DNA from: Candidatus Methanoperedens sp.
GTDB lineage: Archaea > Halobacteriota > Methanosarcinia > Methanosarcinales > Methanoperedenaceae
Assembly (NCBI GenBank): GCA_041494705.1
Contig: JBGQBI010000001.1
Coordinates: forward strand, 420,001 to 452,000
Length of the DNA stretch: 32,000 nt
Direction of reading: 5' to 3'
Part shown: in pieces, positions 3,273 through 18,590 of the stretch
How positions within the stretch are numbered: position 1 is the first letter of the stretch
How the letters are laid out: every line of letters starts with the position of its first letter
Position numbers and translations under genes: made by a program
The notes under the pieces: model-generated
Told to the model about the DNA's origin: nothing
The model's input: the letters and a program-made list of their open reading frames with translations, nothing else
The model's database searches: none

Positions 3273-4664
3273 ATGAATAAATATGATTCGATTGTGGTGG
3301 GCGGAGGTATTAGTGGATTATTATCTGCTCTGGTATTATCTAAGTCAGGAAAAAAGGTACTTGTTCTTGAGAGAAACAAGAATCTTGGTAACAATTGTAA
3401 TAGCTATGTTGTTGATGGTTATCAGGTAGATACCGGTCCACACGCTATAACCCAGTTGCGCAAGGGTGGGCCGTTAACTTATTTAATGGATAACTATTTC
3501 GAGTATATTCCGGTTTTTGTGGATTATGGAGAGTATTTTATTCGTACAGAGAACGGTTTGAAGAAAGTGCCTACTGACCTCAGCGGTTATCTGACAATGG
3601 ATATACTGCCAAGAAAAGACCGCCTTATAATTGCACAGGCATTGACAAAAATGCTGGTAATGTGGCAGTTTGGTACAGATCTCTCAAAGACATCTGTTTA
3701 TGAATGTCTTCCGTGGGACAATCTTTCATCCGCCACGGCTGATTTTACAGATACATTTTGTTATTTCTTATCCGGGAGATCGATGAAAGAGACCTCGGTT
3801 CAGAGGATGTTTGTTGGCGGTGGATTTGTTGAAGAGAGCATTCAAAAAGACATAGCTCATGAAAAGAATCAATATTATAACCTGTATGAGGAAGCTAAGA
3901 AGGTTTCTTATGTCAGCAGGTTACTAAACAATAAAAAAGTAAGCTATAATCAGTTTTATCCGCGGGACGGTCTGAAAGCCATAGTAAATGCTATATTGTA
4001 TTCGATGCCAAAGACTGTGGAGATTAAAATAAATACTGCTGTAAAAGAAATTATCGTAGAAGATAATATTGCAAAAGGAGTTTCAACCGAAGAAAATTCA
4101 TACTATGCGGACTTGATTATTTATTCAGCTTTTGTTAAAGATCTTCCGCAATACATTAAAGATTTGCCACCAAACTATATTTCAGATTTAAATAAAGTCA
4201 AACAATCAAAGACTTTGACAATATGGCTTGGATTAAGCGAAGAATTCAAAGAATTCAACTATGTAGGGGGCGAAGTATGGTTTAAGAAGAAGGCCTTCTG
4301 GGCAATGCCTATAAGCAATTACAACAGGAATTTTGCTCCCAAAGGAAAAAAACTGGTTGGATTTATGTTTTCTGTTGATGAAAATAATGATTTAGAATCA
4401 GAAAAGCGCAATGCATACGACACTATTTTACATGTATATCCCAATATAGATAAATTTATAGATATGGTTCATTATCAGATAACGACACCAGAAAAAGCTG
4501 CTATATCAATAAATGGATTTATTGCAGACACAGAGACTCCAATCAAAAACCTCTATATAGTCGGGACAGATGCAGATGATCGAAGTATGGGAGTGACCAG
4601 GGCTTCCTACTCGGTAGTGAAACTAATAAAGGTTTTGAAAAGAGAGGGATATATAGTTATATAA
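3273..4664 (+). CDS. FAD/NAD(P)-dependent oxidoreductase, phytoene-desaturase/amine-oxidase-like
   Basis: N-terminal Rossmann dinucleotide motif (YDSIVVGGGISGLLSALVLSKSGKKVLVLERN) followed by VDTGPH. The 463-aa length fits the CrtI-like family. The gene is visibly more AT-rich than its flanks and has AAGAGGT upstream of the ATG. Confidence 0.75.
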   Translation: MNKYDSIVVGGGISGLLSALVLSKSGKKVLVLERNKNLGNNCNSYVVDGYQVDTGPHAITQLRKGGPLTYLMDNYFEYIPVFVDYGEYFIRTENGLKKVPTDLSGYLTMDILPRKDRLIIAQALTKMLVMWQFGTDLSKTSVYECLPWDNLSSATADFTDTFCYFLSGRSMKETSVQRMFVGGGFVEESIQKDIAHEKNQYYNLYEEAKKVSYVSRLLNNKKVSYNQFYPRDGLKAIVNAILYSMPKTVEIKINTAVKEIIVEDNIAKGVSTEENSYYADLIIYSAFVKDLPQYIKDLPPNYISDLNKVKQSKTLTIWLGLSEEFKEFNYVGGEVWFKKKAFWAMPISNYNRNFAPKGKKLVGFMFSVDENNDLESEKRNAYDTILHVYPNIDKFIDMVHYQITTPEKAAISINGFIADTETPIKNLYIVGTDADDRSMGVTRASYSVVKLIKVLKREGYIVI

Positions 4665-4689
4665 AAAGAAAAAAACCCTTGCAAAAGGG
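4664..4689 (-). terminator. Hairpin plus T-tract terminator candidate (minus-strand sense)
   Basis: The minus-strand sense reads CCCTT-TTGC-AAGGG followed by TTTTTTTCTTTTT. It lies just downstream of the PHP gene and the oxidoreductase remnant. Confidence 0.4.
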
Positions 4690-4722
4690 TATGGAAGCCA
4701 TCTACGATGTGTAGTTGCCCCT

Positions 4723-4836
4723 CTACGTTCTGTCCTTTCCAAGAACAAGTACCCTCTTCCCGTGCTTTGAAAGTGTCAGGGCAGACATCAGGCCGCTTAT
4801 GCCTCCGCCTGCTACGATTACATCATATTCCGGCAT
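4723..4836 (-). pseudogene. Truncated N-terminal remnant (37 codons) of an FAD-dependent oxidoreductase, homologous to 3273..4664
   Basis: MPEYDVIVAGGGISGLMSALTLSKHGKRVLVLGKDRT* matches MNKYDSIVVGGGISGLLSALVLSKSGKKVLVLERNKN at 24 of 37 positions (hand alignment). It starts 13 nt after the PHP stop with a GGCGAGGT SD-like site, and only about 58 nt remain downstream before the convergent gene ends. Confidence 0.6.
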
Positions 4837-4849
4837 TTTACCTCGCCTG

Positions 4850-5542
4850 CTACAATGGTTCATCCTTATAAAAAATCTTGCTGTGGAATTCTTTTCCGAG
4901 CCTGTTAAGCCTCCGGAAGAACCCGCGAATGACCTGAATGAAGACAACATACAGGGGAGCGACCTGTCCGCCAGGGCGGGTTTTTCCCTCCCGGATGGCT
5001 GATAATACAGCTTCTTCTCCAGAATCTGTATCTATTTCCGTAAAACCAAGACCGATTGTTGCAAGCACATGGGAATCGCTTCCACCAGTTTCAGGTTTTC
5101 CAAGGAGACGTGCCATCTCTTTCGCATTCGTATTTTCACCGAATATGCATCTGGAATTGAAGGTCTCGATTGCGTCCACATCCAGACCATCCACATTGCC
5201 GATGCTTCTTATTTTGAATGGATGCGCTGCTATTACCACGCCGCCTTTTTCATGGGCAATCCTGATAGTCTCTTCCGGTGTGAGGTTTGGCTGGATATTT
5301 TCTCTTATCCCGAGTACGAGCAGATGTCCTTTCGTTGTTGAAACTTCGACAGCCGGAAGCACGAGTAAAGGCAGGCTCAATTCAAGAGCGCGGTTTCGGG
5401 CATGAAGGCTTCCTGTTACTGTATTATGGTCGCATATCGCAATCCCGTCAAGCCCTTTCTTCACTGCCTGTTTCAGTATGTCGTCGATGGAAAGGCTGCT
5501 GTCCGATGAGTGGTTTGAATGGATGTGAAGGTCAAAACGCAT
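4850..5542 (-). CDS. PHP-family metal-dependent phosphoesterase
   Basis: MRFDLHIHSNHSSDS, then GLDGIAICDHN, then AAHPF and GGSDSH, which are the classic PHP His/Asp motifs. Confidence 0.8.
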   Translation of the reverse strand: MRFDLHIHSNHSSDSSLSIDDILKQAVKKGLDGIAICDHNTVTGSLHARNRALELSLPLLVLPAVEVSTTKGHLLVLGIRENIQPNLTPEETIRIAHEKGGVVIAAHPFKIRSIGNVDGLDVDAIETFNSRCIFGENTNAKEMARLLGKPETGGSDSHVLATIGLGFTEIDTDSGEEAVLSAIREGKTRPGGQVAPLYVVFIQVIRGFFRRLNRLGKEFHSKIFYKDEPL

Positions 5543-5548
5543 TATTGT

Positions 5549-6052
5549 TTAGTAAACGGTCACGCTTTTTACGCCTTTTATCCCTGTGAGTGTATTCACA
5601 AGTTCCCCGCTCACTTTGCCCTCCGTGATTATTGTAAGTTTTGGCTCCTCTGTCAAATATGGGTCGTCCGAAACTGCCTGCCTGATTACAATCCCGTGCT
5701 CTGCCACGGCAGTCGCCACAGCGCCCAGAAGTCCTTTGCGGGCGGCGTTATCAGGTGCTATTACTATTACTCCAAGACCTAGCAGCGGCGCGACTTCCCG
5801 CAGGAATGGAATGGTCCGGACGTTCCTGAATATCTGCATAAGCGTCTTATCCGTAATGATAGTTTCACATGTAGAATCGACAACGCGCCTGTCCACTGCT
5901 ATCTCATTTGCTATCTGGGTGTGCGGTATCTCAATCATTCCTGAGACAACCCTCCCCTGCTCATTTACCTGGAAACCTCTTTCCAGCAGCATCCGGATGA
6001 CTTTTTCCTGTGCCGGATGGTTTTTGAATTTTTCCTGTATTATACTCCACAT
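5549..6052 (-). CDS. ACT-domain regulator of amino-acid metabolism (COG2150-like), N-terminal HTH-like region
   Basis: 167 aa. The N-terminal part resembles an HTH, and the C-terminal part (LGVIVIAPDNAARKGLLGAVATAVAEHGIVIRQ) resembles an ACT fold. It ends 6 nt upstream of the PHP gene, suggesting an operon. Family assignment is from memory of archaeal COG2150 proteins. Confidence 0.6.
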   Translation of the reverse strand: MWSIIQEKFKNHPAQEKVIRMLLERGFQVNEQGRVVSGMIEIPHTQIANEIAVDRRVVDSTCETIITDKTLMQIFRNVRTIPFLREVAPLLGLGVIVIAPDNAARKGLLGAVATAVAEHGIVIRQAVSDDPYLTEEPKLTIITEGKVSGELVNTLTGIKGVKSVTVY

Positions 6053-6149
6053 TATTTCTTAGTATGGTTATATTGTATACAAATGTTTTTGTATCAAAAA
6101 ATAAAAAATTGGAGGTGGAAAATCCCCCCTCAACCTGCGCTTTTCTCTC

Positions 6150-6674
6150 TCAGTGACCCCCCTCCCCCATTTTGACTTCCTGCATGCTGACATGTGCCTC
6201 TTTACGCTTCGGTTCGCTTCCTGCCTTGGTATCTTTCTTTTTCACTTTATTAGCGATATCTTTTCCAAGCCTTTTACATTCTTCAAGATCCTTTTCAACA
6301 GGTTGATATTGGATACGTAATACCGGATCTATTACATCCATGCCAAGCCCACGCATTTTTTCTGCAATCATTATAGGCGCCTCACCGCTCCATCCGTAAG
6401 AGCCGAAAGCCGCTCCAACTTTGTCTGCTACTTTTGCTTTTTCAAGGCTCTCAATAAACTTTTCCATAGGAGGCAGCATCTTATAATAGAAAGTCGAAGA
6501 GCCAATCGCAATGGCATCCGCAGCTTTTATGTCCTCCATTCTTGCTTCATGGAAATTCACGGCTTTAGCGTCAATATTCCTTGATTTTGCACCTTCTACG
6601 ATAGCATCTGCCATCGCCTTTGTGTTACCCGACGTACTGAGATATACTACTACTAATTTTGGCATATTTTTCAC
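6150..6674 (-). CDS. Flavodoxin-like protein with a basic C-terminal extension
   Basis: LVVVYLSTSGNTKAMA is an FMN phosphate-binding loop, and FGSYGWSGEA is the second flavodoxin motif. The start could be Met1 (6674) or Met4 (6665). Confidence 0.8.
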   Translation of the reverse strand: MKNMPKLVVVYLSTSGNTKAMADAIVEGAKSRNIDAKAVNFHEARMEDIKAADAIAIGSSTFYYKMLPPMEKFIESLEKAKVADKVGAAFGSYGWSGEAPIMIAEKMRGLGMDVIDPVLRIQYQPVEKDLEECKRLGKDIANKVKKKDTKAGSEPKRKEAHVSMQEVKMGEGGH

Positions 6675-6833
6675 ACCCTTGTCTATTTATCGAGATTGGA
6701 ACGATATTTTTACACTATCCCTTTCTCATAATAATGTTATATGTGATTTCAGATAAAGCTTTCGCGGTTTTGTACAAGAACAATATTGGCAGTATGGGCA
6801 AAGCACTTAAATGTTAAGCACTTTTAAAACAGC

Positions 6834-7304
6834 ATGATTGTTATCGGAATCGACCCCGGGCTTGCGACAGTGGGCTTTGGCGTCATACAAACCGAAAAAA
6901 ACAATATAACTCCTGTAAGCTATGGAGTCATAAGGACATCGGCTGAAAAACAATATCCTGAACGCCTGCTGGAAATATACACCGGGGTCAATGAGCTTTT
7001 TGGAAAATACGTACCTTCAGCGGTGGCGGTTGAAAAACTTTTTTTCAATAAGAATGTTACAAACGCCATGAGCGTGAGCGAAGCAAGGGGCGTTATAGTC
7101 CTGGCGGCAGAGCAAAATCATATACCCGTATTTGAATATACCCCGAACGAAGTTAAGCAGGCAATAACGGGTTCAGGGCGGGCGGATAAGAAACAGATGC
7201 AGGAGATGATTAAGAGGCTGTTGAACTTAGACGAGATACCAAGACCTGATGATGCGGCGGATGGGCTTTCGATTGCTTTATGTCATATAAATATAATGAG
7301 ATAA
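6834..7304 (+). CDS. ruvC: Crossover junction endodeoxyribonuclease RuvC (bacterial type)
   Basis: MIVIGIDPG (Asp7), AVEKLFF (Glu67) and PDDAADGLSIALCH; 156 aa. Confidence 0.9.
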   Translation: MIVIGIDPGLATVGFGVIQTEKNNITPVSYGVIRTSAEKQYPERLLEIYTGVNELFGKYVPSAVAVEKLFFNKNVTNAMSVSEARGVIVLAAEQNHIPVFEYTPNEVKQAITGSGRADKKQMQEMIKRLLNLDEIPRPDDAADGLSIALCHINIMR

Positions 7305-7307
7305 TAG

Positions 7308-7895
7308 ATGATTTCGCATATTTATGGTGAAATAGCGCAGTGCGGTGAAACTTTTGTGATTATCGATGTGGGAGGCATAGGCTATCAGGTGAATGTTACA
7401 AAGCCGGCAGTGCAGGAACTCATCAATAAAAAAGAAAAGGTAAAACTGTACACCCACCTTAATGTCAGGGAGGACGCGCTTACACTCTATGGATTTCTAA
7501 ACGCAAGCGAGCTTACGATGTTCAGGCTCCTTATCAGCGTGACAAGAATAGGGCCCCAAATCGCAATGAACATATTGTCTCAGATAAAAATTGAGGAGCT
7601 TGCGTCTGCAATTTTCCGCGAGGATGAAAAAGTCCTTACCAGTATTTCTGGAGTTGGCACAAAAAATGCCAAAAGGCTGATACTTGAACTCAGGGACAAA
7701 ATGAAAAAGAAAATGGAAGGATTTGTTTTCACGGGTACAAGCAATATTAATTATGACGCCGTTAGCGCTCTTGTTTCTCTCGGATTCGGACAGCGTGAGG
7801 CTCAGGAAGCGGTGGAAGCCTCATCGTCTGATATAAAAGAACGCACAGTTGAAGTATTGATTAAAGCAGCGCTTTTGAAATTGAAAGAACGTTAA
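7308..7895 (+). CDS. ruvA: Holliday junction branch-migration complex subunit RuvA
   Basis: MISHIYGEI...[10 protein letters not shown] is the OB domain and [16 protein letters not shown] is the HhH motif. The C-terminal domain III reads [16 protein letters not shown]. 195 aa. Confidence 0.9.
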
Positions 7896-7900
7896 AGAAC

Positions 7901-8887
7901 ATGGAAGAAAGAATAATAGCGCCGGTGTCGTTAAACGAAGAAAAGGAAGATACAACCATCCGCCCGACAAGGCTTTCTGAATTTATCGGGCAGAATGCAC
8001 TCAAGGATTCGCTAAAAATATTTATCGAAGCTTCAAAAAAAAGGGAAGAACCGCTCGACCACGTCCTTTTCTCAGGACCCCCCGGCCTTGGGAAGACAAC
8101 GCTTGCACACATCATAGCGCACGAGATGGGCTCGGATATAAAAAGCACCTCAGGCCCAGTGCTTGAAAAACCGGGAGACCTTGCAGCAATACTAACGACA
8201 CTCAAGAAGGGAGACATTCTATTCATCGATGAGATTCACCGCCTGAACTCTGTTATTGAAGAAATACTGTATCCTGCAATGGAAGATTTTGAAATAGACG
8301 TCATGATAGGCGAGGGACCAAGCGCCCGCTCCATAAAACTCACACTAGAGCATTTCACCCTCATAGGCGCCACAACCAGGGTAGGACTTCTTGGCTCGCC
8401 ATTCAGGGACAGGTTCGGCTTTATTTCAAGGCTTAACCTGTATTCAGTGCCTGAACTTGTGGAAGTGGTATCACGAAGCGCATCCATCCTGCAAATCCCT
8501 ATGACGCAGGAGGGGTCACTTGAGATTGCCAGGCGAAGCCGCGGGACACCACGCATTGCCAACAGGCTGCTGCGGCGCGTATGGGATTTTGCTCTCGTGA
8601 GGGCAGAGGGGAAAATCATGCAGGATGTTGCGGATGCAGCGCTAACCATGCTGGGAATCGACAGGCTCGGGCTGGATGAGCTTGACAGGCGCATCCTTAC
8701 TATAATTTCAGGGGATTTCGGGGGAGGACCTGTCGGTGTCAAGACAATTGCAATATCAGTCGGCGAAGAGGTCAGGACTATTGAGGAAGTTTACGAGCCC
8801 TACCTTATCCAGATAGGGTTTATCAAACGGACTCCCCAGGGGCGGGAGACAACGCCTGCTGCAAAGGAACATGTGGGAATTGGATAG
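7901..8887 (+). CDS. ruvB: Holliday junction branch-migration ATPase RuvB
   Basis: [11 protein letters not shown], Walker [10 protein letters not shown], Walker B ILFIDEIH, sensor [19 protein letters not shown], and the C-terminal winged helix [15 protein letters not shown]. Confidence 0.95.
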
Positions 8888-8910
8888 AAGATATTGCAGA
8901 ACTGGGTGCA

Positions 8911-8942
8911 GATATCACCGCAGAGGCGCAAAGTTCGCAAAG
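8911..8942 (+). repeat. Short intergenic repeat (TATCACCGCAGAGGCGCAAAG-type)
   Basis: GATATCACCGCAGAGGCGCAAAGTTCGCAAAG recurs in inverted orientation at 18273..18304. A partial copy (ACCGCAGATGAACG) sits at the window end, 31987..32000. Confidence 0.5.
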
Positions 8943-9007
8943 ATTTAAATTGCAAAACAGTTTTATACTTTAATCTTACATAGTAAGAGTAGTAAGAGAG
9001 GTAAGAC

Positions 9008-9241
9008 ATGCAATCTGTAATAATGAGCACGAAGGGACAGGTCATCATACCTGCCAGCATCAGGAAAAAGTATGGGCTTAAAAAGGGCGTGAAACTGATT
9101 ATCGAAGATGAGGATAGCTATATCAAAATTATTCCGAAGACGACTGACCTTACAAAACTTTGTGGTATATTGAAAGGGCACCTTGATTCTAGCTCTGTAA
9201 GAAAACAAATTGAAGAGATGCGCAAAGAAGACAGGTATTAG
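9008..9241 (+). CDS. vapB: AbrB/SpoVT-family antitoxin (VapB-like)
   Basis: STKGQVIIPASIRKKYGLKKGVKLIIEDED is a swapped-hairpin AbrB/SpoVT motif. Its stop directly abuts the start of the PIN gene (TAGATG). Confidence 0.75.
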   Translation: MQSVIMSTKGQVIIPASIRKKYGLKKGVKLIIEDEDSYIKIIPKTTDLTKLCGILKGHLDSSSVRKQIEEMRKEDRY

Positions 9242-9649
9242 ATGAACAGGATTCTAATCGATACAATGCATATAACCGACCTTCTGATAGAAGATTCTCA
9301 TTTTGAGTTGGCGCAGGCTGTGCGGAATAAAAAGATTACAGGATTGGTTTCAGTCATTACACTCACAGAATTGGTTAAGACCTCTGGCATGAAAAATAAA
9401 GACCTGATGTACAGTATCCTGTATCAGTTAATCTCTTCAGACCTTATTTTTGTAGATGTTACCCAGCAAATAGCAATACGCGCTGGTGAATTGCGTTTGA
9501 AATATGATATACCAACAGCAGATTCGCTGATTGCTGCTACCGGTATGGTTGAGAATGTCAGGCATATCCTGACGGATGATGAGCACTTTGAGGCTACGAA
9601 GAATTTGATCAAGCCGATTGATTTGAAGGCTGCGATGAGGTTGGTTTGA
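9242..9649 (+). CDS. vapC: PIN-domain ribonuclease toxin (VapC-like)
   Basis: 135 aa with the conserved acidic residues in PIN positions: ILIDT (Asp7), TLTELV, TADSLIAAT and LTDDEHF. Confidence 0.75.
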   Translation: MNRILIDTMHITDLLIEDSHFELAQAVRNKKITGLVSVITLTELVKTSGMKNKDLMYSILYQLISSDLIFVDVTQQIAIRAGELRLKYDIPTADSLIAATGMVENVRHILTDDEHFEATKNLIKPIDLKAAMRLV

Positions 9650-9701
9650 GAGTCTATATACACTCGATACAGATTATCATGGACTAAAAGGAGAAAAAAT
9701 A

Positions 9702-10202
9702 ATGGCTGAGTTTGATTCCAAAGGATTTTCAATACATGGCCTTTTGTGCTGTTTTGCTGAGATTTTGGATGAGTTAAAAGAGAGAAGTGTAGTTCGAACA
9801 CTAAATAATCCAGTTTCTGATTATGCTGAATGGCTTGTAGCTAAGAAGATGGATTTAAAACTGGTTTCCAATTCAAACTCAGGTTATGATGCCAAAGATG
9901 CGAAAGGTAACCGTTTTCAAATCAAATCCCGAAGACTTTCTCCAAAAAACAATTCGAGGCAACTTGGTGTCATTAGAAAACTTAACTCTAACGAGTTCGA
10001 TTATCTAATTGGTGTTATATTTAACAAGGACTTTATTGTTGAAGAAGCATATAAGATACCGCAAGGTGTAATTGACAAATTTGCCCCTTTCAATGAGCAT
10101 CAAAATGGGCATATTCTACATTTGCGTGGAGATGTTCTGAAAGCGCTAGGTGTAGAAAACATTACGAATATTATAAAAGATGACAATACAGCAACCGTAT
10201 AA
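9702..10202 (+). CDS. Hypothetical protein with a PD-(D/E)xK-like nuclease motif
   Basis: 166-aa ORF with a strong SD (AAAGGAG). GYDAKDAKGNRFQIKSRR resembles a D...(E/Q)xK restriction-endonuclease-fold core. It is AT-rich like vapBC. The family is not firmly recognised. Confidence 0.45.
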   Translation: MAEFDSKGFSIHGLLCCFAEILDELKERSVVRTLNNPVSDYAEWLVAKKMDLKLVSNSNSGYDAKDAKGNRFQIKSRRLSPKNNSRQLGVIRKLNSNEFDYLIGVIFNKDFIVEEAYKIPQGVIDKFAPFNEHQNGHILHLRGDVLKALGVENITNIIKDDNTATV

Positions 10203-10248
10203 TGTATAATAAGGGCTTTAAGCCTCACTTATTTATTGCCTCTATAAA

Positions 10249-11817
10249 CTACACCCCCACATCCATCTCCTCATCCGCCCTCACTTCCGGCGCCTCATGC
10301 TTCTCCTCATACTTTCTCTGCGCCTGCCACATCGCCGGGGCATCCTTGCTCCTGCCCTTCGTATCGCTCGTTAGTCTCTTTCTTATCCTCACAAGCGCGG
10401 GCGTATTTATCGCAACGCCTGAAATTATCGCCTGACCTTTCGCCAGGGATGGAAGCTCTGAAATCATGTCCCTGCTTGCAGACTCGATGCTCTGCGCAAT
10501 CTGCTGCTGGTCAGTGGGGTTGATTATCCGCATAGTTATCTGCGTCATGCATTGCGAGAGCGAATCCGCGTCAAGTTTACTCGGGCGCTGGGAAACAAGA
10601 CATACACCCACGCCGAACTTCCTGCCCTCAGAAAGTATGGTCTTGAGGATGCCCTTGGATTTAGCCTCGCCGCTGTGGGGCGCGAACCTGTGCGCCTCCT
10701 CAATGACCACAAACACAGGATAGGGAAGGAACTTGTCCACATGTGATTCATTGTACTTATTGTTCTCAGTCCCCTCACGCGCATCGAATAACCGGCGCAG
10801 CATGACAGAGGCTATCAACTGCTGATCTGTCACTTCGATTCCTGAGACGTCCATAATCGTAAGCTGTCCGACTTTGAAATAATCGGCAAGAGGAATGGTC
10901 TGGAAGTCGTCGAATATAGAGCCGTACAGTTTCCCGAACCGCCACAAGATGCCCTCTATCGTGGACTCATTAGAGGAATCCCGCAGTGCTTCTATCTCCT
11001 GCTTTAATTCATTCCGGGTGAACTTTTTCTTGCTGTTGTTTTTGAGATTGTGATATGCAGACCGGAAGAGCGTCTTCATCTTATCCGACATCGTTCCGTC
11101 GTCCATTATGCTGATAAAATCGCTAACTGAAAGGTCACTTATCCGAATTTTTATAGTCTCAGGTTTCACAGTTTTTACCTTTGGACGATACGATGACGTG
11201 ATGAATTCGGGCATATTCTGTATTTCGCCGAGCGTGGAGTATTCGCCGTGCGGGTCAAAAATCAGGACAGGAGCCATGTTGTAGGGTTTCAGAAGCTCTT
11301 CCACCAGGACTCCCACAGTGTACGATTTTCCCGCACCGGTAGAGGCGATAACCGACACATGCTGGCTTACTATATCCCTCACGGATAACACAATTTCCGT
11401 ATCCTCTCCAAAAACAGTTCCTACAAAGGCAGAGCCTGAGGCACCTGCTTTTACTTTACTGATGTCTTTCAGGACATCTGCTACTGCGCGCTCAATTTTA
11501 GCGCCGCAGGGGGGATTTGTTCTCGGATTAATGAACTCGCCCATCGCCGCATCAAAATAACCGACAACAGCGGCTGAATAAGAGTAGTATTTAAAATCCT
11601 GCGGGTCAAGACCGTAAAACCCTGAAATCTCATTGGCATCAAGTTCATTATCCAGAAGGAACTCCTGTGGATATTGGTTCAGCGGCTCGCCATGTTTTAC
11701 CCTGCACAGGATTTTTTTACCCGCTTCATGATAACATGCGAACATACCGGCAGGCAGCCGCTCACCCGATATGAAGGTGAATCCTTCCTCATCCGAATAG
11801 TTGACAGTCCCGATCAT
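10249..11817 (-). CDS. herA: HerA bipolar DNA helicase/ATPase (FtsK-HerA superfamily)
   Basis: It has an N-terminal barrel-like region, Walker A IASTGAGKSYTVGVL, LIFDPHGEY, Walker B FVVIEEAHRFAP, and GRKFGVGVCLVSQRPSKLD. It is collinear with Sulfolobus HerA as I remember it. Confidence 0.9.
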   Translation of the reverse strand: MIGTVNYSDEEGFTFISGERLPAGMFACYHEAGKKILCRVKHGEPLNQYPQEFLLDNELDANEISGFYGLDPQDFKYYSYSAAVVGYFDAAMGEFINPRTNPPCGAKIERAVADVLKDISKVKAGASGSAFVGTVFGEDTEIVLSVRDIVSQHVSVIASTGAGKSYTVGVLVEELLKPYNMAPVLIFDPHGEYSTLGEIQNMPEFITSSYRPKVKTVKPETIKIRISDLSVSDFISIMDDGTMSDKMKTLFRSAYHNLKNNSKKKFTRNELKQEIEALRDSSNESTIEGILWRFGKLYGSIFDDFQTIPLADYFKVGQLTIMDVSGIEVTDQQLIASVMLRRLFDAREGTENNKYNESHVDKFLPYPVFVVIEEAHRFAPHSGEAKSKGILKTILSEGRKFGVGVCLVSQRPSKLDADSLSQCMTQITMRIINPTDQQQIAQSIESASRDMISELPSLAKGQAIISGVAINTPALVRIRKRLTSDTKGRSKDAPAMWQAQRKYEEKHEAPEVRADEEMDVGV

Positions 11818-12329
11818 GTTTCCCTCTCAATATATTTCCGGACAAGCCTTAACATCGCGCTGCATTCAGGGAATCCTGCCTCAACCTGGCTAACCATGGA
11901 AAGAAGAACGTTACGTGGAAGTGCATCCCGGCTGGCATGAAAATACGCGACACTGGGTTTACCGTTTATGATATGGAATTGCTTTAGTTCTTCAGTTTTC
12001 AAAATATCAATCGTATCCTTCACCTCAGGCGGCGAGTCGATATTGTATTCCACGCTCCCGTTACGTATTACTCCAAGTCCGTGAATGACATAATAGCTGT
12101 TCCTGAAATCTTCATTGAATGGAGCATACTTGGGCTGCATTGAAGGTTCGATATAAGGAATCAGGTCTTCACGTATCGAATGCGTGATGTTTTTAATGAC
12201 CCCGACAATTATTCCCTCATCTTTTTCAATTTTAACGAACCTGCCGATGCGTTCCTTCTGGGCATCCGGCTGTATTTTCACGATATACGTATTCGCATCA
12301 TCAACCCTGATTATGTCTCCTAATACCAT
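11814..12329 (-). CDS. Extra operon member: stand-alone HAS-barrel-like small protein (hypothetical)
   Basis: 171-aa ORF. Its stop overlaps the herA start (ATGA), and its start lies 4 nt after the nurA stop with AAGGTGAT as SD. The N-terminus (LGDIIRVDDANTYIVKIQPD...IGRFVKIEKDEGIIVGVIKNI) follows the beta-barrel pattern seen at HerA N-termini. Confidence 0.7.
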   Translation of the reverse strand: MVLGDIIRVDDANTYIVKIQPDAQKERIGRFVKIEKDEGIIVGVIKNITHSIREDLIPYIEPSMQPKYAPFNEDFRNSYYVIHGLGVIRNGSVEYNIDSPPEVKDTIDILKTEELKQFHIINGKPSVAYFHASRDALPRNVLLSMVSQVEAGFPECSAMLRLVRKYIERET

Positions 12330-12333
12330 TGAA

Positions 12334-13482
12334 TCACCTTCTCATTGTCTTATGGAAATGCTTGGCGCTCTTATTAATCTTAATCCCGTGAGCCTTGCAG
12401 AAATTATCAAACATCCCGTAAAAAAGGTCATGCTCGTTCATCCGTATCACTGCGGCATCATGCGCCCGCATAAGTATATCGGGATAATTGCCCCGGATAA
12501 CACATAGGGCGCGAATGATATCCGCGAGCTTATCGATATCTTCTTTTTCATGTGCCCATGCGGGGAATTCAACACGCGAAGGAAGGCCGTTGCTCAGCCT
12601 CATGTAAAAAAACGCTATGCTATTCTTAAAAGGCCCGTAGTTATCCAGCACAGAGCTTGAAACATCGCCACGCTTGTCATCCCTGTCGCAGAGAAAAGCC
12701 GCTGTCCTTTCTCCCCACAAAAGATGGGAAAAAAGATGCGTATCCGAGAGCTTTGTCTTTTTCAACCCGAAGAGGAAATGCATCATAAGAGTGATGTCGC
12801 GCGGCATTGTGGTATCAATAAAACCGACAACGGTATTGCGTGTTTCCCTGGAAGCCGAGAGTAGCTTCACGATTGCATTGATGTATATCTCCCTGATATT
12901 CCTGTTAAGGACATTTATATGGGACAGGATAAGGGCGCCATCCAGGAGGACATAGAGCTTTTCATGTTCTTTCATTAGCCGTATGATGGTATCGCATTCC
13001 ATTGAAAAACGGCGCGCATCAACATATTCACTCCCGAATGAATACACGCTTGCAGCTTCAAACTCGCCGGGTGTAATGATGGAAGCTCCAGTTTCCTGTT
13101 TATAATCGCTATCGTCGGTATGCCTGTTAAATACGCTTGAGGTCTGGATTACTGCGATAGGAATCTCAAAATTCTTGTCCGAATATATCTGGCTTCCGTC
13201 AACAGCCCCCACTGCAACTCCTGAAAGGACAGAATCCACCCACTCCATCGCTTCGTGGCGGTTTTTCCAGTTAAAAGGAAAAGGATGAATGAGTTTTCCG
13301 GTTTCAAGGAATTTCGCTCCGCTGTATGGGGGAAGCCTTTCATTCATCGAAATATCGATATTCCTGAACTTTGTGAGCTCATTCCTGTACTCTTCTGTCA
13401 GTTCAGAGCGTTCAATATCATAAGAAATTATCGAATCAAGTTTGGCATCAAACTGTAAAGAGATGTTTTTCAGGTCAATCAT
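12334..13482 (-). CDS. nurA: NurA 5'-3' nuclease
   Basis: VGAVDGSQI and YVLLDGALI are NurA-domain catalytic Asp motifs. The 382-aa size and the position next to herA, rad50 and mre11 fit NurA. Confidence 0.8.
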   Translation of the reverse strand: MIDLKNISLQFDAKLDSIISYDIERSELTEEYRNELTKFRNIDISMNERLPPYSGAKFLETGKLIHPFPFNWKNRHEAMEWVDSVLSGVAVGAVDGSQIYSDKNFEIPIAVIQTSSVFNRHTDDSDYKQETGASIITPGEFEAASVYSFGSEYVDARRFSMECDTIIRLMKEHEKLYVLLDGALILSHINVLNRNIREIYINAIVKLLSASRETRNTVVGFIDTTMPRDITLMMHFLFGLKKTKLSDTHLFSHLLWGERTAAFLCDRDDKRGDVSSSVLDNYGPFKNSIAFFYMRLSNGLPSRVEFPAWAHEKEDIDKLADIIRALCVIRGNYPDILMRAHDAAVIRMNEHDLFYGMFDNFCKAHGIKINKSAKHFHKTMRR

Positions 13483-13592
13483 AAAGGGTTACGCCCCTTT
13501 ATGACGTCCCGAGTCACGCCTCGGGAGGGCGTGTTGGGGTATGCTTTGCATACCCCTTCGTTTGACAAAAACCTTCATAAAGTTTTTCATGT
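13479..13592 (-). repeat. Modular hairpin element, short copy, filling the whole rad50-nurA intergenic space
   Basis: 13479..13534 is 56/56 identical to the reverse complement of 18754..18809. It contains a GGGGTATGC-AAA-GCATACCCC hairpin. The termini supply the rad50 TGA and the nurA ATG, and a 33-codon ORF (13489..13590) spans the element. Confidence 0.85.
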
Positions 13593-15896
13593 CACAACCC
13601 TGCTTTCGCCATTGATTTTTTCGATTTTCACAACATGTCCGTATTTTTCATTGAAAGTATCATCATGAGAAATAACGAAAATCTGTTTGAAACCTTTGAT
13701 ATTCATTATCTGCTCCGAGAGGTTCTCTCTTCGTATTTCATCCATATTCTGCGTGGGCTCATCGAGAAACACGAAATCCGAGTTGGAAAGCATCTTAAGA
13801 AGCGCAAGTCGCAGAGCAAGCGCTGCCCCCATTTTCTCGCCTCCGCTTAGCTGCTGGAAATTTTTCTCCTCGCCGCTCTCGGTAATTATTATCCCGTAGT
13901 CCTCGCTCCATCGCAATTCCTGTGAGAAGTCGTCCATGATAGCGCAGTAAAGACCGTTCGCCTCTTCGCTTATCTCACCTATCAACTCAAGAACGATATG
14001 CTGTGCCGAATCCCGCAGTGTCTCGCGGATAAACTTCGCGTATTCACCGAACCTCTTCTCGTTTTCAAGCTTTGCCTCAAATTCACGTATCTTTGCAAGA
14101 TAGCTCATCATTTCAGCTATCTCTTTATCAAGTTTCAGGAACTGGCGGTCTTTTTCTTTTATTTCCACCTCAAAACCGCGAACTTTTGCCCCAAGCTCCA
14201 CGCACTCATGTTCGGCGCCCTCAAGCGCCTTTGCGCTAAAACCTAAAGCCATCCCGTCGTATAGCTTTTGGGATTCTGTAAGTGCTTTCTCTTCCTCAAA
14301 GATTGTTTTTCCAAGCCTCTCGCATTCATTCTTGTATTCCACATACTTTTCTGCAAGCGGCTGGTTCTGCACATATTTCTTGTAGACAGGTTCAAGTTCT
14401 GCGAGCTTTTTCTTCACCTCGCTTGCATCCATATCAAGAGAATTGTATTTTTCAAGCGCAGTTTTAAGTAGTGATGCCTCGCTTTCTTTTTCAGGGATTT
14501 TTTTGATTTCCCCGGATATTTTTTCAACATCCTGCGCACCTTTTTTGGCAAGCAGTTCCAGAGCCTTCATTTTACTTCGCGGGTCGCCCAGAACCTTTAG
14601 TTCTGAGTTCATGGCTTTCAGTGTGTCTTGCGCAGCCCCAAGTCTTTTCTGCGCGTCCGCAAGCTGCTCCCTGAAATATGAAGAGAAATCCGCCACTGTG
14701 CTGCACCTTATCCCTTTTATCACAGGGCAAAGGTTCTCAGTGCCGGCGATGCTCATCCTGCCTTTAATATCCTTAATCTCATTGAGCGCGACAGCATGTT
14801 CCCCTTTTATGGTTTCAAGCTTCTCTTCAAGCTCATCCTGCTTTTCCAATAGGGGTATGAGAGCCGTCTTTTCACAAGCGTTCTTTTCTATCTCGGCTTT
14901 CAACGCCTCAAGACTCATGCGTTTTTCATTCAATCCTGCAAGCTCATTTTTAATCCCGTTTAACCTGTCCTTCAGCACATCACGTTCTTTTCGCATGCCC
15001 TCAAGCTTTTCCTGCTTCTTTCTCTCTTCTTCGTATCTTTCTTTATCTGCCAAAAGTGCGGATACGGTCTTCTGTGCTTCTTCGGATTTCTTAAGCTCGT
15101 CTTTTGACTTTTCAAGAAGCTGCTTCAATCCCTCTATTTTTATGCGACCCTGCTTTATCTCATTTTCAAGCTTATCCATCGCATCCTTCTGCTTTTTGAG
15201 CGCATCCCGCCTGCCCTTAGCTACCTTCAGGGTCTCGCTGCACTCCTTCAGGATTTTCTTTATGCTCTCAATGGTCCTGTTAAGTTCATCCCTCTCAATC
15301 TTTTTTTGCTCATAATTCTCTGTCCTGATGCGCAGTTTCTCGATGTCATTCTCTATGCTCCTGACACCTTCATCTATCAGGCTCATCGCGTTCCTGAGAT
15401 TCTCGTAGGCATTCCTGTACTCGTCAACCTTGAGTATCTCATCGAATGTCTTTCTTCTCTTCGTTGGGGTATCCATGAATGCTGCCGTCAGCATGCCCTG
15501 CGGCACTCCAATAGTGTTTTCAAAAATATGCGGCAACTCATCTTCAGTGGATACAGGGAATATGTTGCTGATGAGCCAGGAGAGAACGTCTTTTTTGCCT
15601 GTGATATGGAGATTCTCTCCCTCGACACTGTATTCTCCACCGAGTTTTCTTGTAAGTATGTAAGTCAAATTATTTGCGAGAACTTCAACAGAAACCATAC
15701 CTGATTTTTCCCCGCGGCGCAGGAAGTCCGCATCTTTGTAGGGCAGGTAGTCAAACAGGACGTATCCGATTGCTTCGAGGATGGTGGTTTTCCCGTGCCC
15801 GTTCTGGCCGCAGATGCCGTTTATGCCCTCCTTGAACTCGATGGTTGCATGACGGTAGGATTTGATGTTTTTTAATTCCACGGATTTGATAAGCAT
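13587..15896 (-). CDS. rad50: Rad50 ATPase (SMC-like), short coiled coil, non-canonical hook
   Basis: Walker A GQNGHGKTT, a long Glu/Lys-rich coiled coil, signature LSGGEKMGAALALRLAL, Walker B FVFLDEPTQNMD, and H-loop ISHDD. The start abuts the mre11 stop. Confidence 0.9.
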   Translation of the reverse strand: MLIKSVELKNIKSYRHATIEFKEGINGICGQNGHGKTTILEAIGYVLFDYLPYKDADFLRRGEKSGMVSVEVLANNLTYILTRKLGGEYSVEGENLHITGKKDVLSWLISNIFPVSTEDELPHIFENTIGVPQGMLTAAFMDTPTKRRKTFDEILKVDEYRNAYENLRNAMSLIDEGVRSIENDIEKLRIRTENYEQKKIERDELNRTIESIKKILKECSETLKVAKGRRDALKKQKDAMDKLENEIKQGRIKIEGLKQLLEKSKDELKKSEEAQKTVSALLADKERYEEERKKQEKLEGMRKERDVLKDRLNGIKNELAGLNEKRMSLEALKAEIEKNACEKTALIPLLEKQDELEEKLETIKGEHAVALNEIKDIKGRMSIAGTENLCPVIKGIRCSTVADFSSYFREQLADAQKRLGAAQDTLKAMNSELKVLGDPRSKMKALELLAKKGAQDVEKISGEIKKIPEKESEASLLKTALEKYNSLDMDASEVKKKLAELEPVYKKYVQNQPLAEKYVEYKNECERLGKTIFEEEKALTESQKLYDGMALGFSAKALEGAEHECVELGAKVRGFEVEIKEKDRQFLKLDKEIAEMMSYLAKIREFEAKLENEKRFGEYAKFIRETLRDSAQHIVLELIGEISEEANGLYCAIMDDFSQELRWSEDYGIIITESGEEKNFQQLSGGEKMGAALALRLALLKMLSNSDFVFLDEPTQNMDEIRRENLSEQIMNIKGFKQIFVISHDDTFNEKYGHVVKIEKINGESRVVT

Positions 15897-17192
15897 TTAT
15901 TCCCCCATGCGTGAAAGTAAGGTCTGTTGGGGATTTTCCGTCTTATCTGTCCTGGTATTATTTTCTGAGGCACCGCTTTTTATTTTCGCAAAGCTCCATC
16001 TCAATTCTTTAAGGACTGAGTTCACTTCGACATTCGCAGCAGCCATCTTTTTCACTTCGACCATTATCTTTACGACATCATCCACATTATCCCTGTACCT
16101 CCCGTCAAGTTTTATCCGGTCTGAGAATACACGAAGCTCTATCTGCTCGCGCGTGAGCCCGCGCACGTCCCCCTCTTTGATGGCATACGGCGAATTTGTC
16201 CGCTGGAGCTTGACCTCGGACCAAAGGGGTTTAAATTGTTCGATGAGCATATCCCTGATGCGCTCCAGGTTCACATCGGATTTCGGGAAGTTCATCTCTC
16301 CATAGAGCATAAGTTCGACAAGCGGTGCCTTATCTGATTGGACTGTGGTCTCTCTTTCGATTTTTGCGTTGACTTTTGAATAAAGGTCTTCGGGAGTGGC
16401 AATATCGCTCATATCAAGCCTGATGCGCCTGACGGGACGGGTAATGGGGGATATGAGTTTCGCACCATTATCCCTGACATGATAGAACCCTTTTGGCAGG
16501 TCGTACTCGTTCAAGGACATCATTTCAATGCTGCCGGGGTTGAAAACCCATTCATCAAGTTCATATTGCGTATGATAATGCCCGAGCGCAAGGTAATTCA
16601 CTGTTTCCTTCAGAGGGAGGAGAGAATTGTATGGAATTTCCCCCGCAACTTCCTGCTTTACCTGTCCTTCCATGCCAAAGTGCATCATAAGGATGGTGAA
16701 TTTTTCTCCCCTTTCTGCATTTATTTTTTTTATCTCATCAGCTATCTCTGGGATTATGGAAGCTGTGCTTGCGCCAAGGTATTTCACCCCGAAGATGCGG
16801 AAATTATCCAGCTCGACGAAGTCGCCCATCAGTTTCACACCATTGGCTTCTTTCAGCCTTATGAGCCGGAGCAGCCCCTGTGAATTGAGTATCTCAAGCC
16901 AGCTCTTGCCGTCCTGGTGGAAGGCGAGGTCGTGGTTCCCTTCGATGGCATAGACCGCAGTGGCAGGGCTTTTCGCTTTCAGTTCAGAGAGAACCTTATA
17001 CGCCTGCTCATATGTGGGCGCGTTTATGTTCCGTTTGTGGAACAGGTCGCCTGAGATGAGGATGAACTCGACTTTGTGGTCGATGGCGTATGTTATGACT
17101 GAATGGAAGGCGCGGGCGTAGTCGCGGAAGCGCTCGATGAGTCCGTACTGGGCATATCCGAGGTGGAAGTCGCTCGCGTGCAGGAAGTTCAT
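15897..17192 (-). CDS. mre11: Mre11 nuclease (calcineurin-like phosphoesterase)
   Basis: FLHASDFHLG, SGDLFH, IEGNHD, MMHFG and LGHYH are phosphoesterase motifs I-V. It lies directly upstream of rad50. Confidence 0.9.
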   Translation of the reverse strand: MNFLHASDFHLGYAQYGLIERFRDYARAFHSVITYAIDHKVEFILISGDLFHKRNINAPTYEQAYKVLSELKAKSPATAVYAIEGNHDLAFHQDGKSWLEILNSQGLLRLIRLKEANGVKLMGDFVELDNFRIFGVKYLGASTASIIPEIADEIKKINAERGEKFTILMMHFGMEGQVKQEVAGEIPYNSLLPLKETVNYLALGHYHTQYELDEWVFNPGSIEMMSLNEYDLPKGFYHVRDNGAKLISPITRPVRRIRLDMSDIATPEDLYSKVNAKIERETTVQSDKAPLVELMLYGEMNFPKSDVNLERIRDMLIEQFKPLWSEVKLQRTNSPYAIKEGDVRGLTREQIELRVFSDRIKLDGRYRDNVDDVVKIMVEVKKMAAANVEVNSVLKELRWSFAKIKSGASENNTRTDKTENPQQTLLSRMGE

Positions 17193-17280
17193 GGGTAGTT
17201 AAAAGGGCGTCAGGGTTAAAAATGGTTGTGGGAGCGGGGTGAAAGTGATGGTTTTGTTAGACAGGTCTGATATTAATAGT
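17185..17280 (-). repeat. Copy A of the duplicated mre11 promoter/5'UTR/first 8 nt
   Basis: It aligns with 18143..18237 at 80 of 96 positions (hand alignment, 1 gap). It includes the ATGAACTT of mre11, an identical GAGCGGGGTGAAAGT core and a TATA-like CTGATATTAATAGT. Confidence 0.8.
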
Positions 17281-17282
17281 CA

Positions 17283-18125
17283 TTATTTCAACTTCCTGGT
17301 TTCTTTTTTCCCTGTGATACTGATATAATTCTCTGAGCTTACCACTTTTCTTCCTGTTTTCTTCTCAAGTTCCTTTCTTGCATTTCCTGCAATCATGCCT
17401 CCCTCTTTTGAAGAGTCGAAACACTCATTGAATCCTTTTGAGTCCCTGGATTTAGTGATTTCTGTAGTAGATTTTTCCCCGAGCATGGTGAAAATCAATT
17501 CCAGGTCGTTCATATGGTCTCTCAGGTTCTGGTTTTTATTCATCGGGTCTAAGCTTTTTATTTTTCTATGTTCCTTGATTGACTTCCCGAAAATCGCTTT
17601 AGAAATCTCATTTGTAAGGATGGCAAAATCTCTTTTTTCGTCAACTCCTCTTTCTTTCCATTCATCCGTAAGTTCCTGCCTGATAGCAATCCCCCGCAGC
17701 CTTTTTTCTATCCAGTCTTCTGGATAACCTTTGAGTTCGTAATACTCTTTTGCCCTATCCTGCGCCAGTTCGGGATTTTCTATTTCCTGTATCCTTTCGT
17801 ATCCTACTTTTGCCAGCCATCTTTTGAAGGGTTCAGCTTTTTTTGAAGGGATGGACTGGATTATCCGGAACATTGATTCGGTGTTTGCGCAATCTGTTTC
17901 GTATTTTTTGCCGTCGGATGATGGCAATTTCAGTTGTACCCAAATTGGGGACAACTCAAGTTGTTTAAATTCCCTGTCCTTGAGTTTGCCCCAGTATTGT
18001 CGTGGCGTTGGACTATCTGTTAAAGCTTCCACAACATCAACAACCGAGAAATACCACTGGTTATCATGCCATGTTCGTCGTATTTTAGCTCCTTCGAAAA
18101 CTATCAGTGCGTCTTTTGAATCCAT
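17283..18125 (-). CDS. Bro-N domain protein with DinD-like C-terminal region (DNA-damage-inducible protein D family-like)
   Basis: The N-terminus (FEGAKIRRTWHDNQWYFSVVDVVEALT...YW) matches the Bro-N pattern. The C-terminal half (RDFAILTNEI...NQNLRDHMNDLELIFTMLGE...GNARKELEKKTG) parallels E. coli DinD as I recall it. Confidence 0.65.
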   Translation of the reverse strand: MDSKDALIVFEGAKIRRTWHDNQWYFSVVDVVEALTDSPTPRQYWGKLKDREFKQLELSPIWVQLKLPSSDGKKYETDCANTESMFRIIQSIPSKKAEPFKRWLAKVGYERIQEIENPELAQDRAKEYYELKGYPEDWIEKRLRGIAIRQELTDEWKERGVDEKRDFAILTNEISKAIFGKSIKEHRKIKSLDPMNKNQNLRDHMNDLELIFTMLGEKSTTEITKSRDSKGFNECFDSSKEGGMIAGNARKELEKKTGRKVVSSENYISITGKKETRKLK

Positions 18126-18142
18126 GTTATTTCCCCTTGTTA

Positions 18143-18237: not shown

Positions 18238-18272
18238 TGAGAATCTAATTTTCCAAACATATTCCTTTAACA

Positions 18273-18304: not shown

Positions 18305-18368
18305 GCTCCCTGCTGAATGTCAAATCCAACCGCAACTTATTTTTAGTATAATCAAATAATATATCAGC

Positions 18369-18572: not shown

Positions 18573-18590
18573 GTCACGACTTTTTTGCTC

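Follow-up and report, generated by a model that had tools for sequence, protein, structure and literature searches.

A complete bacterial-type ruvC-ruvA-ruvB cluster occurs in the 32,000-nt stretch of Candidatus Methanoperedens DNA analysed here (hereafter the window), in which it very probably represents a functional RuvABC resolvasome operon that is resident in the chromosome, has an ultimate bacterial origin, belongs to an archaeal lineage shared with Methanomicrobiales and was subsequently inherited vertically. RuvABC in Methanoperedens is an old, genus-wide and already annotated trait. The proteins are named in public records and, together with a 2012 report on Methanomicrobiales and a published RuvB phylogeny of Methanoperedens (see below), this makes the finding confirmatory. 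The modest addition made here consists of evidence for a Methanomicrobiales-lineage origin of the Methanoperedens copy, for a conserved chromosomal locus and for a promoter-like segment. The window offers a clean example of strong selection maintaining a complete RuvABC in some mesophilic, methane-cycling archaea, and adds a repair module to the laterally acquired genes of Methanoperedens.

The ruv genes, their products and a putative promoter

ORF calling recovered three + strand genes separated by spacers of 3 and 5 nt (Table 1), with the same coordinates as in the original prediction. All three ruv genes are present and co-transcribable by strand and spacing, and the same cluster is found in other Methanoperedens loci (L082, L086 and L087) and in Methanomicrobiales loci. 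In profile searches, the products exceeded the curated NCBIfam equivalog cutoffs, with 226.8 bits for RuvC against NF000711 (cutoff 163) and 143.8 against TIGR00228 (cutoff 100.65), 194.6 bits for RuvA against TIGR00084 (cutoff 85) and 500.2 bits for RuvB against NF000868 (cutoff 282). RuvC matches PF02075 over its full length (1-148 of 148), RuvA is composed of RuvA_N (1-62), HHH_5 (72-130) and RuvA_C (149-189) domains, and RuvB displays a RuvB_N, AAA_lid_4 and RuvB_C architecture. The motifs quoted in the original prediction were all found, with IGIDPG, VEKLFF and PDDAADGLSIALCH in the first ORF, GATTR in the third and the motif cited for the second also in place. Equivalog scores and archaeal flanks (see below) both agree with its description of a complete bacterial-type operon in an archaeal chromosome.

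Comparison with solved structures indicates that all catalytic and contact residues of the three proteins have been kept. RuvC has the catalytic residues D7, E67, D140 and D143 and the aromatic wedge F70, and its alignment with E. coli RuvC (1HJR; E=1.8e-33) matches them to D7, E66, D138, D141 and F69. RuvA combines an OB-fold domain I with a pair of helix-hairpin-helix motifs, at about 77-89 and 112-125, and with a domain III (about 149-189) that contacts RuvB; its acidic pin, E55-D56, lies in a VREDA motif (residues 53-57) that aligns with VREDA of E. coli. When aligned with RuvA of 7X7Q and 1BDX, VREDA and ALVSLGF are conserved, as is the domain III segment contacting RuvB. RuvB aligns over residues 3-327 with P. 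aeruginosa RuvB (7X7Q; E=3e-122) and contains Walker A (GPPGLGKTT, 59-67, with K65), Walker B (D110-E111), sensor 1 (GATTR, 156-160), an arginine finger (R171), sensor 2 (R218) and a C-terminal winged helix.

The three genes are under strong purifying selection, with dN/dS values between Methanoperedens species of 0.04-0.10 for ruvC, 0.04-0.14 for ruvA and 0.04-0.08 for ruvB, and with synonymous sites saturated (pS about 0.65) among four Methanoperedens lineages. Based on this selection and on homology, RuvC is predicted to cleave Holliday junctions symmetrically as a Mg2+-dependent dimer, and RuvB to form a hexamer performing ATP-driven, RuvA-dependent branch migration.

A putative archaeal promoter precedes ruvC. 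Its BRE/TATA-like element, AAAGCAC-TTAAAT, spans 6800-6812 (-34 to -22 relative to the ruvC ATG) and is followed by the A/T-rich TTTTAAAA at 6823-6830. No Shine-Dalgarno was seen before ruvC when positions 6800-6833 were read, so that the ruv mRNA may have no leader or a very short one. Nucleotide homology to Methanoperedens copies situated in other neighbourhoods begins at 6800 (L082) or 6794 (L084), and both AAAGCAC(T/A)TAAA and TTTT(T/A)AAA are conserved in an alignment of three Methanoperedens copies. An upstream segment of 35-40 nt carrying the TATA-like box is conserved and moves with the ruv operon, for which the putative BRE/TATA promoter probably yields a leaderless polycistronic mRNA.

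Table 1. Features of the ruv operon and of its surroundings (positions refer to the window)
Feature	Position	Strand	Remarks
PHP	4850-5542		left of operon
TrpY-family regulator, ACT-containing	5549-6052	-	NF053754, 214 bits vs 180
Flavodoxin	6150-6674	-	Flavodoxin_1; directly upstream of ruvC
Putative archaeal promoter	6800-6833	+	read by eye; accompanies operon
ruvC	6834-7304	+	156 aa; Holliday-junction resolvase
ruvA	7308-7895	+	195 aa; junction-binding subunit
ruvB	7901-8887	+	328 aa; AAA+ branch-migration motor
AbrB/MazE antitoxin	9008-9241	+	Pfam
PIN toxin	9242-9649	+	Pfam
DUF6998	9702-10202	+	Pfam; GC3 0.28
HerA	10249-11817		right of operon
NurA	12334-13482		right of operon
Rad50	13587-15896		right of operon
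Mre11	15897-17192		right of operon
TrmY			right of operon
Pus10			right of operon; TIGR01213, 530 bits
L21e	20678-20968		right of operon
RpoF/Rpo4	20979-21332		right of operon
Elp3	30366-31973		right of operon

Chromosomal setting

Archaeal genes occur on both sides of the operon as had been proposed, with the ACT regulator and PHP on the left and HerA-NurA-Rad50-Mre11, L21e, Rpo4, Pus10 and Elp3 on the right. The TrpY-family regulator and the flavodoxin (5549-6674), the latter absent from the original prediction, diverge from ruvC in transcription. Their orthologues (86-87% and 79% identical, respectively) are located directly upstream of ruvC in three loci of other Methanoperedens species (L086, L087 and L088), while DUF447-CitG is found downstream of ruvB in four Methanoperedens loci (L082, L084, L086 and L087). 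This defines a conserved Methanoperedens locus, with TrpY-like and flavodoxin genes, ruvCAB and DUF447-CitG, of which the upstream and/or the downstream flank is common to the species. Identities between Methanoperedens species are similar for the flanks (79-87%) and for the Ruv proteins (75-90%); the divergence of ruvCAB is on a par with that of the native genes around it. The tight operon organisation is not obligatory since ruvA-ruvB occurs without an adjacent ruvC in M. nitroreducens Mnv1 and since small inserted genes split the operon in one Methanoperedens lineage.

Between ruvB and herA, the window contains a VapBC and DUF6998 island (9008-10202) that the original prediction did not list. 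This island has a low GC3 and an outlying codon usage, and fills the spot occupied by DUF447-CitG in other Methanoperedens; it is a rearranged, lineage-specific downstream boundary lying outside the resolvasome. A functional "repair island" joining ruvCAB to herA-nurA-rad50-mre11 was also considered and was rejected, the adjacency being found only in the window's lineage.

The codon usage of the ruv genes is indistinguishable from that of the rest of the window, their pooled distance of 0.51 falling inside the range of control gene triplets (0.41-1.24), and their composition is native, in line with the amelioration that had been judged by eye. No tRNA or Rfam features marking an integration site were detected in the window. 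Location of ruvCAB on a mobile element, a Borg or a virus does not fit the housekeeping flanks, the 2.07 Mb contig or the conservation of the locus across species. Scanning viral contigs with RuvB and RuvC gave no relatives, so that no vector was identified.

Phylogeny and history

Among the matches listed, the nearest relatives of RuvC, RuvA and RuvB outside Methanoperedens belong to Methanoregula, Methanospirillum and other Methanomicrobiales, which are archaea, with identities of 70-77% for RuvB, 50-68% for RuvC and 41-62% for RuvA; bacterial sequences among the matches listed reach at most 63%, 53% and 43%, respectively. Within Methanoperedens, RuvB is 82-98% identical, and more than 100 RuvB clusters at 86-98% identity bear the name Candidatus Methanoperedens; together with the conserved locus, this points to a genus-wide, vertically inherited trait. 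Trees were built by neighbour-joining on Kimura distances, with bacteria represented by the best 80 of the matches listed in a pattern scan, so that closer bacterial relatives are possible. A clade of Methanoperedens and Methanomicrobiales was recovered with bootstrap values of 100 for RuvB, 94 for RuvA, 93 for RuvC and 100 for the concatenated sequences, and in 199-200 of 200 replicates in a second analysis. Monophyly of Methanomicrobiales alone was obtained in only 0-3 of 100 bootstraps, and grouping of Methanoperedens with Methanoregula in 183 of 200 in the concatenated tree, this grouping being weak in single-gene trees (45-130 of 200). The Methanoperedens proteins thus appear nested inside the Methanomicrobiales sequences. 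Methanocella also carries ruvCAB, on a contig (L019) whose flanks give no confirmation of an archaeal origin, and its sequences join the clade in only 0-35 of 100 bootstraps. A RuvB search of 50%-identity representatives was uninformative because the strong conservation of RuvB merges distinct lineages.

Beyond the initial surprise of finding bacterial genes in an archaeon, nothing speaks for an assembly chimera or for contaminating bacterial DNA having been binned with an archaeal MAG, the probability of which is negligible. The two ruv junctions, for which the original prediction had suggested a chimera test, are intact in an independent assembly (GCA_041489935.1, L081) that matches window positions 3823-18887 at 99.993%, with 1 mismatch in 15,065 nt. 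Identical RuvB sequences occur on five contigs, the largest of 2.07 Mb, ruvCAB is flanked by archaeal genes in at least four further Methanoperedens assemblies, the upstream flank recurs in other Methanoperedens species and, in Methanoregula, Orc1/Cdc6 and Mch are encoded directly upstream of ruvC. That a bacterium recently passed the whole operon directly to this Methanoperedens genome could be suspected from the bacterial type of the proteins, from reviews that hold RuvABC to be bacterial and Hjc to be the archaeal resolvase (PMC7776575, PMC10956419), and from the atypical toxin-antitoxin and DUF6998 island just downstream, which hints at local gene flux. Yet this scenario is highly improbable in view of the native codon usage, of the synonymous sites saturated between species that share the locus and of the archaeal relationships described above, the best bacterial RuvB among the matches listed being more distant than that of Methanomicrobiales or of other Methanoperedens. 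Of the horizontal acquisition initially proposed, the bacterial type and the ameliorated composition hold, but a recent import straight from a bacterium does not, the nearest relatives being archaeal, the clade well supported and the genes genus-wide.

The genes could also descend from a deep archaeal ancestor, for instance that of Methanomicrobia and Methanosarcinia, and have been lost many times. The well-supported archaeal clade covers two classes, Methanocella also possesses ruvCAB and other archaeal carriers may exist beyond the matches listed; this history is nonetheless unlikely, as Methanoperedens is nested in Methanomicrobiales instead of being its sister, Methanocella falls outside the clade and RuvABC was found in only 2 of 97 archaeal genomes in 2011, with many other lineages sampled (PMC3403352), which would require many independent losses. 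The original prediction had set a deep and broadly distributed archaeal Ruv clade against horizontal acquisition: an archaeal clade does exist, but it is patchy, neither deep nor broad, so that this objection holds only by half. It is also very unlikely that the genes have ceased to act as a junction resolvasome, either by decay or by being repurposed for extrachromosomal elements such as Borgs. Some lineages do have an interrupted operon or a non-adjacent ruvC, and RuvB homologues are also encoded by Borgs and by mini-Borgs (bioRxiv 10.1101/2023.08.02.551345), but purifying selection is strong on all three genes, their catalytic residues are all intact and the context is chromosomal and housekeeping, with no relatives in the viral contigs scanned. 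The sequence comparisons are best explained by genes that ultimately came from bacteria and then spread from one archaeon to another. The ruvCAB genes most likely came to the ancestor of Methanoperedens from a Methanoregula-like archaeon and were then inherited vertically in the locus defined above, whose downstream side was rearranged in the window's lineage.

Relation to known junction-processing systems

The system resembles bacterial RuvABC (E. coli, P. aeruginosa and T. thermophilus; 1HJR, 1BDX, 7X7Q and 1HQC) in its subunits, domains, catalytic tetrad, acidic pin, HhH and AAA+ motifs and gene clustering, Methanoperedens RuvB being about 60% identical to that of P. aeruginosa over its full length. 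It differs in its host, which has RadA, PCNA and Mre11-Rad50-HerA-NurA and not RecA and RecBCD, and in its organisation as one tight ruvC-ruvA-ruvB unit with an archaeal-looking TATA promoter and without a Shine-Dalgarno or a LexA/SOS context. Archaea have been reported to lack YebC, with which ruvC is usually partnered in bacteria (PMC3403352). In the same study, the RuvABC of M. boonei (Methanoregula) and M. hungatei (Methanospirillum) was read as a horizontal acquisition from bacteria (Zhang et al. 2012, PMC3403352), Methanoperedens being outside that survey. The Methanomicrobiales systems share gene order and clade with that of Methanoperedens, but the hosts are of separate archaeal classes, with Methanoperedens in the Methanoperedenaceae (ANME-2d), and the genes on either side of the operon are not the same. 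The nested topology would imply a secondary archaeon-to-archaeon transfer, which was not proposed in that report. A RuvB phylogeny of Methanoperedens, Borgs and mini-Borgs is given in a 2023 preprint (bioRxiv 10.1101/2023.08.02.551345, Fig. S8), in which RuvB alone serves as a marker tying extrachromosomal elements to their host, the origin and function of chromosomal ruvCAB being left untreated; the RuvB copy in the window is chromosomal. A paper in which Methanoperedens and the word Holliday both occur is a table of BLAST best hits for Dictyoglomus and has no bearing on the subject.

According to the bacterial paradigm, a RuvA tetramer would hold the Holliday junction open through its acidic pin and HhH motifs, two RuvB AAA+ hexamers brought by RuvA domain III would drive branch migration by pumping the duplex arms, and a RuvC dimer would then nick two strands symmetrically and resolve the junction. 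In the host, such junctions would arise from archaeal RadA after resection by Mre11-Rad50-HerA-NurA, or from fork reversal. RuvABC would be able to work after a cross-domain transfer because it recognises a DNA structure and not a recombinase, and the window provides a natural system in which to ask if bacterial machinery for junction processing is able to function within a RadA-based pathway of archaea. A broader proposal, which is conceivable although we hold it with some doubt, is that two or more classes of archaea domesticated the bacterial resolvasome, that it passed from a Methanoregula-like donor to the Methanoperedens ancestor, perhaps via RuvB-carrying Borg-like elements, and that it operates in a hybrid pathway with RadA and Mre11-Rad50-HerA-NurA, backing up or partly replacing Hjc. 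If true, this would contradict the review-level view of a purely Hjc-based junction resolution in archaea.

The archaeal systems, in which Hjc or Hje act with Hel308/Hjm or PINA, rely on a fold unrelated to that of RuvC, Hjc being a PD-(D/E)XK nuclease and RuvC an RNase H-like one. A local Hjc HMM detected no Hjc-like ORF either in the window or among 86 sequences of related loci that total 1.29 Mb. A search with a fragment of A. fulgidus Hjc reached 71 candidates, the matches listed being from Archaeoglobi and Methanobacteriales, and an 11-sequence Hjc profile returned 1087 matches, the best 120 of which correspond to these same two groups.

The three ruv genes and their host

ORF calling reproduced exactly the three predicted genes and their spacers, 3 nt between ruvC and ruvA and 5 nt between ruvA and ruvB. 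In profile searches, all three products exceeded the curated equivalog cutoffs (see table), each with a full-length Pfam architecture. When aligned to solved bacterial structures, RuvC keeps D7, E67, D140 and D143 together with the F70 wedge, RuvA its acidic pin (E55-D56), its two helix-hairpin-helix motifs and the RuvB-contacting domain III segment, and RuvB both Walker motifs (A, K65; B, D110-E111), sensor 1 (GATTR), the arginine finger R171 and sensor 2 R218. Judged from sequence, the residues required for function are complete in the three proteins.

Features of the window
Feature	Position	Strand	Description
FAD-dependent oxidoreductase	3273-4664		463 aa; phytoene-desaturase-like N-terminus
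ruvC	6834-7304	+	156 aa; NF000711, 226.8 bits (cutoff 163)
ruvA	7308-7895	+	195 aa; TIGR00084, 194.6 bits (cutoff 85)
ruvB	7901-8887	+	328 aa; NF000868, 500.2 bits (cutoff 282)
Island	9008-10202		AbrB/MazE antitoxin and PIN toxin pair (VapBC-like), then DUF6998
ORF between nurA and herA	11814-12329	-	171 aa; 4-nt overlap with herA start
Bro-N domain protein	17283-18125	-	280 aa; weak DinD-like match
GC trough	23500-25000		GC 0.30 vs ~0.45 elsewhere
ORF in GC trough	23934-24386	-	150 aa; GC3 0.29
KaiC-family ATPase	28873-29643		256 aa; RadA/RadB-like P-loop, PF06745, 256 bits

Profile matches to a TrpY-family regulator, HerA, NurA, Rad50, Mre11, Pus10, L21e, RpoF and Elp3 bear out the archaeal genes claimed for both flanks, and TrmY, DUF655 and RsmA are further archaeal neighbours. 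Because of this neighbourhood, of an identical RuvB recorded on a 2,065,243-bp contig and of more than 100 protein clusters (86-98% identity) named Candidatus Methanoperedens in public records, the window is chromosomal DNA of an ANME-2d methanotroph. No tRNA or Rfam feature was found in it.

The bacterial-type resolvasome within an archaeon is real and was correctly read, and it is already known in kind. Public records name these proteins RuvB in Methanoperedens, RuvABC has been attributed to HGT in two Methanomicrobiales (Zhang et al. 2012, PMC3403352), and a 2023 preprint gives a RuvB phylogeny of Methanoperedens, Borgs and mini-Borgs (bioRxiv 10.1101/2023.08.02.551345). Elsewhere in the Methanoperedens literature, "Ruv" denotes RuvC-like nuclease domains found in transposases or TnpB. 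Small additions made here are that the Methanoperedens copy is nested in the lineage of Methanomicrobiales, that its locus is conserved in Methanoperedens and that a promoter-like segment travels with it.

A conserved locus and its variants

In an independent assembly, a contig (L081, from GCA_041489935.1) differs from window positions 3823-18887 at a single one of 15,065 nt; it covers both junctions at which a chimera had to be considered. This match, together with the TrpY-like/flavodoxin flank found beside ruvCAB in other Methanoperedens species (L086, L087 and L088), makes an assembly artefact very unlikely. Downstream of ruvCAB, DUF447-CitG occurs in four other Methanoperedens loci (L082, L084, L086 and L087). 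These shared flanks point to an ancestral order of TrpY-like and flavodoxin genes, ruvC-ruvA-ruvB, then DUF447-CitG. The window lineage has kept the upstream side; on its downstream side, the VapBC and DUF6998 island comes first and the herA-nurA-rad50-mre11 operon after it. That ruvCAB lies close to these repair genes is specific to the lineage and probably coincidental. Since the island holds the place of DUF447-CitG, it likely arose by an insertion or rearrangement of recent date; its DUF6998 gene stands out by its codon usage and by a GC3 of 0.28, which is very low.

In one Methanoperedens lineage (L084 5370-10858 and L085), the operon is split by four small minus-strand genes, including DUF3467, between ruvC and ruvA, and by two small DUF2283-like genes between ruvA and ruvB, with all three ruv genes still under purifying selection. 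In M. nitroreducens Mnv1 (L001 9195-10993), ruvA and ruvB are separated by ca. 220 nt and ruvC is missing from the surrounding 10 kb; this lineage may have lost the gene or carry it at another place. The flanks there (ThiI, a thioredoxin-like protein and a 920-aa surface protein) are unlike those of all other Methanoperedens loci. About 8 kb downstream of ruvB, L082 carries a bacterial-type MutL homologue (18849-20576; HATPase_c, DNA_mis_repair and MutL_C), a sign that the genus may combine several repair modules of bacterial type.

Relatives and history of the operon

When GTDB species were scanned, each by one genome, the closest RuvB outside Methanoperedens among the matches listed belong to Methanoregula, Methanospirillum and other Methanomicrobiales (70-77% identity), with Methanocella at 63% and bacteria at 63% or less. 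Methanomicrobiales loci have the same gene cluster, and among the matches listed their RuvC and RuvA are also nearer to those of the window than any bacterial copy. In one Methanoregula contig (L003 6591-11002), orc1/cdc6 (574 bits) and mch lie directly upstream of ruvC, so that the contig is genuinely archaeal; a replication origin may lie near ruvCAB there.

Neighbour-joining trees with bootstraps joined Methanoperedens and Methanomicrobiales in one clade (RuvB 100, RuvA 94, RuvC 93, concatenated 100), with Methanomicrobiales alone monophyletic at 0-3. Methanoperedens grouped with Methanoregula in 183/200 replicates of the concatenated tree, and more weakly in single-gene trees. Methanocella fell outside the clade (0-35/100 bootstraps). 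Here the ruvC-ruvA-ruvB cluster, which comes from a MAG labelled Methanocella (L019 8873-11005), encodes proteins that branch among bacteria, and its flanking genes gave no domain-diagnostic matches; either the cluster was acquired independently or the contig was mis-binned.

Of 97 archaeal genomes in 2011, just two had RuvABC, those of M. boonei and M. hungatei (PMC3403352). Taken together, this distribution, the archaeal nearest relatives and the nested topology make it most economical that a bacterial operon entered a Methanomicrobiales lineage, passed later from a Methanoregula-like archaeon to the Methanoperedens ancestor, and was inherited vertically thereafter. Methanomicrobiales carriers and Methanoperedens share freshwater-sediment and wetland habitats.

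The predicted compositional amelioration was confirmed. For the pooled ruv genes, the codon-usage distance to the remainder of the window is 0.51, low within the range of 0.41-1.24 spanned by triplets of nearby genes taken as controls. Between Methanoperedens species, identity is 79-87% for native flanks and 75-90% for Ruv proteins, synonymous sites are saturated (pS ~0.65) and dN/dS is 0.04-0.14 for ruvC, ruvA and ruvB. Native codon usage, flank-like divergence and these rates show that the operon was inherited vertically under strong purifying selection throughout genus diversification. Of the proposed horizontal acquisition, the bacterial type stands; the operon, vertical in the genus and nested in the Methanomicrobiales clade, is neither a recent nor a genome-specific event.

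Expression signals, function and other window features

Where Methanoperedens copies lie in different neighbourhoods, their nucleotide homology starts no more than 34-40 nt before the ruvC ATG. Two elements are conserved in this segment, AAAGCAC(T/A)TAAA (about -34 to -22) and, from -11 to -4, a box rich in A and T, and a Shine-Dalgarno sequence is lacking; the segment fits a putative archaeal BRE/TATA promoter from which a leaderless polycistronic mRNA would be made. The very short gaps in front of ruvA and ruvB likewise fit translational coupling. By homology, RuvA tetramers would hold the Holliday junction open, RuvB hexamers would drive branch migration and a RuvC dimer would resolve the junction, on host substrates presumably arising from RadA-mediated strand exchange or fork reversal; RuvABC would be portable across domains because the machine reads DNA structure. 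The searchable literature yielded no experimental test of this mechanism in any archaeon. Hjc was not found in the window or in 1.29 Mb of related loci, which are small slices of genomes, and Methanoperedens was absent among the matches listed in two database searches for it.

The KaiC-family ATPase, which adjoins triose-phosphate isomerase, may be a RadB-type recombination paralogue. Bro-N is a phage-associated DNA-binding domain, and the protein carrying it directly follows mre11. The sole match of the ORF between nurA and herA is a weak one to HAS-barrel (E=6e-4); it could encode a HerA N-terminal module, either additional or split off, inside the herA-nurA-rad50-mre11 operon. The FAD-dependent oxidoreductase has an atypically low GC (0.36) and GC3 (0.34) versus its neighbours. 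Within the GC trough, the 150-aa ORF is without Pfam or NCBIfam match and deviates more in codon usage than any other gene of the window; the trough is possibly recently acquired DNA.
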